This document shows positions 24,904 to 26,494 of a DNA stretch of 64,000 nucleotides, one piece after another (the first letter of the stretch is position 1; each line of letters starts with the position of its first letter). Location: the NCBI GenBank assembly GCA_965649765.1, contig OZ287756.1:41788001-41852000 (forward strand). The letters are read 5' to 3'. The position numbers and the translations under genes were made by a program. The notes below the pieces were generated by a model that saw only the letters and a list, made by a program, of their open reading frames with translations, was not told where the DNA came from and did no database searches. This DNA comes from Bispira polyomma. Lineage: Eukaryota.

Positions 24904-24920
24904 CTAGAAGAAAGTGCTGT
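24904..24920 (-). CDS. Coding exon 3 of the secreted Cys-rich peptide gene ((D)STFF-stop)
   Basis: Strong acceptor (T11)GCAG; phase 1 matches exon 2; TAG stop at 24906-24904. Confidence 0.7.
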
Positions 24921-25157
24921 CTGCAAAAAAAAAAACATGTATCTACTACATGATATACTACAATAATATTTTGAATTCTTATTACAAATAGTATAAAGTT
25001 ATATACTAAATAAAGCAATAACAAAGATAAAAATCAGAAGTGGACTTATGCATTGACAGAATATATGTGGGTATGTGAGATAAACAATTTAGTCAGAGTT
25101 ACTACATTTAGCTGACAGTTGTATGTTGGGAGATTTGGTTGAAAACATCAAACTTAC

Positions 25158-25259
25158 CCATGCAAACAGAGATACATTGGTTGTATTTAACCTTGAAGCT
25201 GAGTTGTGGCTTACAGCACTGGTTACAAGGCTCCTCAGTGACAGGGTCTGTAACTGGAA
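25158..25259 (-). CDS. Coding exon 2 of the secreted Cys-rich peptide gene ((V)PVTDPVTEEPCNQCCKPQLSFKVKYNQCISVCM)
   Basis: Acceptor CACTTTTAG, consensus donor G|GTAAGT, 102-nt phase 1-1 open exon; a homologous exon lies at 28847-28946. Confidence 0.85.
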
Positions 25260-25514
25260 CTAAAAGTGAGATTTAATTACTGTTTCTATTCGTAAGATCA
25301 TTATTTTGTAACATTTAGGTTTTAAGACTTAACATTCTTACTTGTGGTCTGATTATTATTATTCTTTTACCATTTTGTGAAACAAGAAAACTATCTGAAG
25401 CTGTAAAGTGATGACAAATAACCCAGAGAACAAAGTATATATCAACTTTTTTCAACTTCCGCCATCTGTATCCGTCAAAAATCACTCGCCAGAGTGCGTA
25501 CGAATGACATAATG

Positions 25515-25842
25515 GTAATAATAATAAAATACCAGATTTATATAGTGCCCTATCCACTTATAGAAATGCTCTAAAGTGCTTATAATAATTATTTATTTGA
25601 CATAGGGCACTATGAACATCGCTGTTATCTAATTCCAATTGTCAACCAATTAGACAAAATCTGACACCCATTATCGGTCAGGTACCAATTTATACACCTG
25701 GGTTAAGAGGGACAACTTTGTGTAAAGCACTTTGTCCAAGGGTACAATCTCCAGGCCAAGCAGCAAGGATCAAACTGATGCTCTGATATCACTCAGATCC
25801 AAAGACACTATAACACTATAACCGCTAGGCCACAGGGACGAC
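25515..25842 (-). mobile_element. tRNA-derived SINE (CORE-like central domain) in intron 1 of the peptide gene
   Basis: Reverse complement gives CTGTGGCCTAGCGGTTA (A box), CCTTGGACAAAGTGCTTTAC...CCAGGTGTATAAATTGGTACC, and a (TTA)n tail. Related to 26980-27330. Confidence 0.8.
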
Positions 25843-25879
25843 ATAAATACATAGATGTAGGGAAATACCCTGAGAAACA

Positions 25880-26090
25880 CTGGGTGAATTACATAGTACT
25901 GAATTCAAATATGTAAATTACATAGTAGTCAAGGTGAATTCGTACATATAAATTACATAGAACTCGGGGTTAAATCATGTATGTAAATTTCATAGGACTC
26001 AGGGTTAAATCATACATGTAGATTACACAGAACCCAGGGTTAAATCATGTATGTAAATTACATTGAAATCAGATTTAAATCATACATACA
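25880..26090. repeat. Degenerate ~38-bp tandem repeat (GTAAATTACATAGAACTCGGGGTTAAATCATGTAT-like)
   Basis: About 5 imperfect units are visible. Confidence 0.75.
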
Positions 26091-26359
26091 TCACACTTGA
26101 ATTCACACACTTAAATTACTTAACAGTCTAGGAATATGTCACAACTACAGAAATTTAAATGAGAAAAAACAGAAAAAGAAATAACGCTGTATGTAATTAT
26201 TTTACAAACAAGTTCAACCAATAAATACATGTATAAATAAGACACCAATAGTTTATGATTCAATATGAAATTATTTACCCAAATAATAACATAAGTATAA
26301 AACACAGAGAAAATGTCCTTTTTATACTAAAACAATATAAAATAAAGACGACTTCATAC

Positions 26360-26435
26360 CTCCCAGTCCATGTGTGCTTGATACTAGGAATGACACCATC
26401 ATTGCCAACACGAAATATTTCATCAAAGTTTCCAT
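26360..26435 (-). CDS. Coding exon 1 (signal peptide) of the secreted Cys-rich peptide gene: METLMKYFVLAMMVSFLVSSTHGLG
   Basis: AAAATGG start context; K plus hydrophobic core plus T-H-G cleavage-like site; donor AG|GTATGA in phase 1. Confidence 0.85.
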
Positions 26436-26461
26436 TTTACACACAGGCTCGCAGATTGATA

Positions 26462-26494
26462 ATGACTGGTTTATTTTACAGAAGGGTTTTTATA
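26462..26494 (-). promoter_or_regulatory. TATA box and Inr-like site of the peptide gene
   Basis: TATAAAAA on the minus strand at ~26492-26485, about 25 nt upstream of CCAGTCA and about 50 nt upstream of the ATG. Confidence 0.6.

Follow-up and report, generated by a model that had tools for sequence, protein, structure and literature searches.

The 64,000-nt window examined here (C9:41788001-41852000 of the 1.035-Gb Bispira polyomma genome assembly; coordinates without a chromosome or Mb position are positions in this window) contains on its minus strand a small gene for a putative secreted, cysteine-rich peptide. An earlier note had described a three-exon gene for a 64-aa product resembling toxins or antimicrobial peptides. 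Our analysis suggests that the gene belongs to a real, apparently undescribed family of secreted proteins, and that the C-terminus and the toxin label given in that note are probably wrong. Since the product carries a five-cysteine module and, likely, a Thr-rich mucin-like tail, it is likely a cross-linking component of a secretion rather than a toxin. The reading that we favor, with moderate confidence, is that the window copy (copy A) encodes a secreted mini-mucin of a lineage-specific family that would act as a disulfide cross-linker in mucus or a similar extracellular secretion.

Gene structure and tandem cluster

The 5' part of the gene consists of the following features.

26488..26494, minus strand: TATA box (TATAAAA), 59 nt upstream of the ATG; copies B and C have one too
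26360..26435, minus strand: coding part of exon 1, 25 codons plus 1 nt, signal-peptide-like, with a phase-1 GT donor
25158..25259, minus strand: exon 2, phase 1 at each boundary, encoding a short linker (Pro, Thr and acidic residues) and then the five-cysteine module

Joined to a third stretch at 24920-24904, the two exons have GT/AG ends on the minus strand and give 195 nt in frame, which translate into the 64 aa originally reported; the proposed TATA box was likewise confirmed, as TATAAAA at 26494, 59 nt before the ATG. Exon 1 encodes a Lys in the n-region, a hydrophobic core and small residues at -3 and -1, as judged by eye from hydropathy. The cysteine spacing of the module is C-x2-CC-x12-C-x3-C. 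The twin CX3C motifs (C1-x3-C3 and C4-x3-C5) with an extra cysteine stand as first described, while the spacer, claimed to be 13 residues, was counted as 12.

Exon 2 is present in seven copies (A to G) spread over ~210 kb and lying inside segmental duplications, and three of the copies (A, B and C) are intact. Copy B lies inside a 43.8-kb inverted duplicate that is 99.4% identical to the window sequence (C9:41802674-41846368, window 14674-58368, versus C9:41907018-41950762), and copy C is ~90% identical; nested inverted duplicates of 8-17 kb exceed 99% identity. Copies D and E are without exon 1, F and G are without its coding part, exon 2 of F is interrupted by a stop, and the Thr-rich exon described below is missing from G. 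A lone exon 1 is found at 41.773 Mb. Over exon 1, the A/B-like contigs were ~1.6-1.7 times as deep as the C-like contig in two of three sequencing runs, a ratio of depth rather than copy number, which is a weak hint that A and B both exist.

A scan of the 344 kb around the cluster for a TATA box, a hydrophobic open reading frame and a phase-1 donor returned only exon 1 of copies A, B and C. Between A and C, exons 1 and 2 together differ by nine synonymous and six replacement changes (proportion of synonymous differences, pS, 0.26; of replacement differences, pN, 0.043; Fisher p=4e-4), with four of each kind in exon 1 and five synonymous against two replacement changes in exon 2 (p=0.003). The scan and the synonymous excess bear out the claim of a genuine gene with a signal-like N-terminus, and we conclude from these sequence comparisons that exons 1 and 2 belong to a genuine gene under purifying selection.

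The 3' end of the gene

Five features downstream of exon 2 bear on where the transcript ends.

24904..24920, minus strand: exon 3 of the earlier note, a cryptic acceptor and 5 codons within a repeat; a possible alternative, repeat-derived last exon
22272..24953, no strand assigned: insertion of 2.68 kb within intron 2, composed of high-copy repeats, the first 640 nt being part of a dispersed element; copies F and G do not have it
22140..22192, minus strand: second candidate after exon 2, which could be a last exon of 17 codons or a micro-exon of 15 nt; its acceptor is rich in pyrimidines
20641..20714, minus strand: preferred last exon, with a phase-1 acceptor, Thr/Pro octapeptide repeats (TTTTTPE[EK] type), 24 codons and a stop
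20520..20640, minus strand: cluster-unique 3' untranslated region, containing AATAAA twice (20563 and 20525) and then a T-rich stretch

The previously proposed exon 3 and its acceptor proved to be repeat sequence. Contig depth is ~60,000-280,000 over 24752-24919, compared with ~50-500 on exons 1 and 2. When 24760-24960 was searched against the genome, 1,458 candidates came up, spread over many chromosomes, and all 40 that were scored matched. The repeat match starts at 24954, and the same T-tract, YAG and, with small changes, first codons were found in all seven unrelated repeat copies examined. The repeat acceptor and early stop are common to copies A, B and C, the acceptor is lost in D and E, and the whole block is missing from F and G. 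The 64-aa product is therefore unsupported as the default, because its last exon is repeat-derived and because a cluster-unique Thr-rich exon fits better. The exon at 24904-24920 could still serve through exonization.

All six genome matches to the Thr-rich exon fall within the cluster, and its depth is at the cluster level. It is 24 codons long in A and B, 48 in C to E and 47 in F, with the same stop position; its indels are 72 and 3 nt, the former reflecting a repeat unit of 24 nt. Where this exon is used, Thr, Ser and Pro would make up 71-77% of the tail in all six copies, and the predicted products are 83 aa for copy A and 107 aa for copy C. Among the 37,018 YAG sites in 644 kb, only 39 lead into a phase-1 frame in which 14 or more of 21 residues are Thr, Ser or Pro, a threshold set after the Thr-rich exon had been seen. 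Six of these are the Thr-rich exons of the cluster, 31 lie inside Pro/Thr/Ser-rich (PTS) exons at 34.1 Mb, and two are in the low-complexity flank of a long interspersed nuclear element (LINE). The 22192 candidate would in either form add a sixth cysteine, and its 3' half overlaps a dispersed repeat. On this evidence the main product of copy A probably ends in the Thr-rich exon at 20714; an end in the repeat-derived exon is a lesser possibility, and use of 22192 as the last exon is unlikely. The three sequencing runs behind the depth figures are uninformative on expression, since they cover introns and are without exon-exon joints.

Several other repeats occur in the window. The dispersed element (24317-24954) is non-coding and high-copy, and presumably resembles Helentron/HINE-type ends; in full copies a T-run is followed by a GC-rich hairpin that opens the element (-10 to -18 kcal/mol), the window copy is without the hairpin, and the repeat brings a ready-made splice acceptor. 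Remnants of tRNA-like short interspersed nuclear elements are found in intron 1 (25654-25842) and beside the 22192 candidate (22063-22162). The other long open reading frames of the window (1228-14255 and 30895-56257) are mostly broken LINE reverse transcriptase/endonuclease and DIRS-like (reverse transcriptase, tyrosine recombinase) fragments, labeled by eye. A short tandem repeat with a ~47-nt unit (18700-18980) and a simple repeat from 61606 that reads as Cys/Arg/Ser both look non-coding.

Look-alike modules, predicted fold and homolog searches

The genome was searched with a pattern that combined five cysteine codons with a donor, which gave 24 matches compared with two for the reversed control; six of the 24 were copies from the cluster. 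Of the remaining 18, five are in open frames on C9 and have [FY]N-x-C at the fourth cysteine, a feature that the pattern did not demand. By hand estimate ~0.04 such matches would be expected by chance, a figure to be read with the facts that the five form only two independent clusters and that the [FY]N feature was noticed afterwards. Two of the 13 non-family matches were translated and the remainder were judged from the matched stretch. A further pattern search gave 19 non-family matches, all of which were translated; the best, on C4, had an open frame and FN, but no fitting splice sites or signal exon within 3 kb, and was judged to be chance. A C3 match (E 0.56) was dismissed as it was without the CC, and no further modules were found in 34.21-34.29 Mb. 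At C13:18.988-18.990 Mb, cysteine-rich low-complexity readings resemble the antisense of a Thr/Ala-rich repeat, and the other strand may hold a further mucin-type exon there.

Thr-rich open frames of 1,314 and 336 aa (Thr, Ser and Pro 76% and 64%) terminate in the module at 34.12 and 34.15 Mb, and after it come a phase-1 donor and a short last exon. The third copy of this group, at 34.113 Mb, carries a frameshift. At 62.49-62.52 Mb there are three genes, each with a TATA box, a signal exon, a module exon and a last exon of 6-7 codons, which would encode tail-less peptides of ~60 aa. The inferred last exons of these five distant genes contain no sixth cysteine, and all have basic residues at or beside their end (R, RR, KK, RG). 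In an alignment of seven modules, C1-x3-C3, C4-x3-C5 and the fifth cysteine are invariant, the loop is 12 or 14 residues, and the invariant positions are Cys, Pro and Asn. The module changed less than the adjacent intron in the 34.1-Mb pair m1/m2 (8/75 versus 51/192, p=0.005) and in the 62.5-Mb pair p1/p2 (2/69 versus 36/294, p=0.03). Net charge of the module by cluster is +1, -5 and +2 to +3, and these differences could favor pairing between unlike modules. Kinship of the three clusters would follow from motif, exon phase and layout, and location, not from profile scores.

The monomer modeling suggested in the earlier note was carried out with AlphaFold2 for two family members and gave two-helix models, with helices over both CX3C motifs, at low confidence (predicted local distance difference test, pLDDT, 64.6 and 58.6). 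Alpha-hairpinins and kappa-hefutoxin have C-X3-C-Xn-C-X3-C with nested disulfides, according to the available part of PMC7191063. Since the modeled helices lie over both CX3C motifs and the motif is shared with these peptides, the helical-hairpin fold first proposed is plausible, and the module may plausibly fold as a stapled hairpin with one cysteine to spare. A VIA fold search returned only generic helical pairs, all tied at Z 2.0-2.6, with BWI-2c among them (Z 2.3, root mean square deviation 3.3, 31 aligned), and Foldseek gave no matches. A homodimer prediction scored 0.02 against a mark of 0.32 and was used neither for nor against binding.

Using Pfam, we found a single match, to Toxin_5 (PF05294), over C-x2-CC (15.9 bits against a cut-off of 25, E 0.018); it was weak in two of seven members and absent from the other five. 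Erythrocruorin linker matches in the same genome were above the Pfam cut-off; this protein family is an annelid one, and the host is accordingly probably an annelid, while a search for haemocyanin came back empty and was uninformative. Searches for homologs were blank: phmmer against 1.84 billion representative sequences gave no match at E<=0.001, a word-seeded alignment search found none among 1,196 longer and three near-length candidates at E<=1, PDB sequences gave none, and the ESM Atlas had no usable match for two modules. These results are weak as evidence of absence, because the collections are mostly microbial and annelid-poor and the queries are short (31-42 residues). In the literature, as far as the portions consulted extend, no annelid family of this kind turned up; unannotated transcript tables in supplements could hold relatives.

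These data also bear on the possibility that the product is a stand-alone, disulfide-stapled peptide of ~40 residues, ending in the exonized repeat or the 22192 exon and serving in defense or signaling like alpha-hairpinins or kappa-hefutoxin-type peptides. The twin CX3C with its 12-residue loop fits the alpha-hairpinin motif as given in the available text of PMC7191063, but there are five cysteines instead of four. The copy A module is rich in Lys and aromatic residues with a net charge of +3, the 62.5-Mb look-alikes are tail-less, and the intact copies A, B and C keep the repeat acceptor and a common early stop that the exon-1-less D and E, by a single event, did not retain in full, having lost the acceptor. 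Tandem duplication with pseudogenes is also common in defense families. On the other side, linker and module are not separated by a basic cleavage site, the look-alikes have either acidic modules (-5) or modules joined to long PTS exons of up to 1,314 aa, selection is purifying rather than diversifying, Toxin_5 stays below its cut-off, and a separate conserved Thr-rich exon with polyadenylation signals is present. These observations leave the toxin or antimicrobial label weak, and we regard a defense or signaling peptide as a secondary and rather doubtful possibility.

Proposed role and comparison with known systems

The cross-linking mini-mucin that we favor would arise as follows. The exon 1-2 structure, the cluster and purifying selection provide the starting point. 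Exon 2 would be spliced to the Thr-rich exon at 20714, giving 83 aa; the product would enter the secretory pathway, lose its signal peptide and be O-glycosylated on its Thr runs, as expected from established mucin biology. The module is predicted, with low confidence, to form a helical hairpin with two disulfides between the CX3C motifs. Unpaired cysteines are unusual in secreted proteins, and the fifth cysteine might bond to another module in the way that Sgs7 bonds to Sgs3. The partners could be other mini-mucins, the long PTS proteins of the 34.1-Mb cluster or the tail-less peptides of the 62.5-Mb cluster.

Several observations weigh against this reading. Exon 2 of A and C differs by 6.9%, compared with 5.6-9.9% in introns, so that exons of the recent copies are overall no better conserved than introns; the selection test is noisy, because pS of 0.26 exceeds that intron divergence. 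The Thr-rich exon has an acceptor below a 12-pyrimidine cut, while those of the repeat-derived exon (13) and of 22192 (14) pass and lie closer to the donor. In A and B the Thr-rich exon has shrunk to 24 codons, and its last 21 codons differ from C by five replacement changes and one synonymous change. All five distant look-alikes finish in a short last exon, as the gene model of the earlier note does, and a signal exon could not be firmly identified in the 34.1-Mb genes. The module is better conserved than the adjacent intron in only two of four pairs, with two of the three 62.5-Mb tests not significant (p=0.14 and 0.37), and identity between clusters is 30-34%. A profile of the window cluster placed none of the five distant modules in the top 12 of 13,289 open reading frames, and the reverse profile placed no window-cluster module in the top 12 of 14,982. 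The low confidence of the structural models belongs here too.

Some of these points would also be expected if copy A were a decaying duplicate, in which the repeat insertion disturbed splicing and left no useful product, or if the likeness of the three clusters were due to chance. Four of the seven copies are visibly broken, the region is dense in LINE- and DIRS-like open reading frames, divergence is similar in exons and introns, and profiles that leave a cluster out fail to recover it. Yet the TATA box, start codon, both splice pairs and open frame are all preserved in A and B, synonymous changes are in significant excess, and the distant matches have chromosome, exon phase and [FY]N-x-C in common, and we consider decay or chance improbable.

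The gene anatomy itself would be identical if the product were a secreted Thr-tailed glycopeptide whose module acts in binding, as a lectin-like domain or one that recognizes chitin or microbes, or else as a thiol redox scavenger, rather than as a structural cross-linker. Loop sequence and charge differ sharply between clusters, which would suit different ligands. In the accessible part of PMC7350206, TFF1 is mainly a monomer whose free thiol is masked by acidic residues, and Pro and acidic residues precede the modules here too. The module matched no known binding domain, and its invariant Cys, Pro and Asn look structural; a binding or redox role appears unlikely to us.

More broadly, and only tentatively, an annelid lineage may have built its own modular kit for hardening secretions, independent of the fly Sgs3/Sgs7 pair: one five-cysteine helical hairpin, encoded on a single chromosome and placed behind a long PTS tract, ahead of a short PTS tail or by itself, would cross-link these three layouts through its spare cysteine. 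The repeat insertion in the window may add an alternative last exon that switches the mini-mucin to a tail-less form. If these proposals hold, this cysteine mini-domain, linked to mucin-type repeats, has not been described before, and it offers a second example, reached by convergence, of a mucin accompanied by a free-standing version of its cysteine module; the small-adaptor model of mucin packing then becomes testable beyond flies. They also carry two warnings, that a genome-called signal peptide with twin CX3C can be a mucus component, which concerns those mining genomes for toxins and antimicrobial peptides, and that a repeat can provide a convincing yet wrong last exon. Invertebrate genomes commonly contain orphan families of secreted cysteine-rich proteins, and the surprise is therefore only moderate until expression or biochemistry is at hand.

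Among known systems, the module is like alpha-hairpinins (EcAMP1, BWI-2c) and the cysteine-stabilized alpha/alpha (CS-alpha/alpha) toxins (kappa-hefutoxin, OmTx, vil14a) in its twin CX3C, loop of 12-14 residues and predicted two-helix hairpin. It differs from alpha-hairpinins in its invariant fifth cysteine (C-x2-CC), PTS fusion, charge of -5 to +3 and want of any sequence match, and in belonging to animal three-exon genes with one module each rather than to multimodular or vicilin precursors. Because of the five cysteines and the PTS fusion we do not file it as an alpha-hairpinin. Nor do we count it among the scorpion short toxins (Toxin_5), which differ in score, as given above, and in having a helix-plus-sheet rather than the modeled helix-helix arrangement; chlorotoxin-type peptides have eight cysteines, unlike the five found here. 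Provided that the Thr-rich exon is used, the product resembles secreted mucin-type proteins in its Pro/Thr/Ser-rich tandem repeats. Gel-forming mucins of the MUC2/5 type are very large and contain von Willebrand D, CysD or cystine-knot domains; the product here is 83 aa, and no matching Pfam domain was found in exon 1 or the modules, a scan that took in these parts and not the full 34.1-Mb models.

Two further systems offer functional parallels. The odd-cysteine peptides TFF1 and TFF3 form disulfide-linked heterodimers in mucus, TFF1 being mostly a free-thiol monomer, as far as the consulted portion of PMC7350206 describes them. The product here would likewise be small and secreted, have an odd number of cysteines and contain a module that possibly acts alongside mucins; the number and spacing of cysteines differ, and no trefoil was among the Pfam results. 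In Drosophila, Sgs7 consists of the cysteine domain alone. It bonds via its cysteines to the mucin Sgs3, at the domain homologous to itself, and makes that mucin more compact inside granules (PMC10861859, from the part of the text available). The Sgs3 domain has eight cysteines rather than five, and no sequence link to it turned up, within searches that included no direct Sgs comparison. As with Sgs3 and Sgs7, one cysteine module both ends long Thr-rich repeats and stands alone in the same genome, and intermolecular disulfides are proposed here by analogy; unlike in that pair, the putative Thr tail of the window gene follows the module, which would constitute a third layout.
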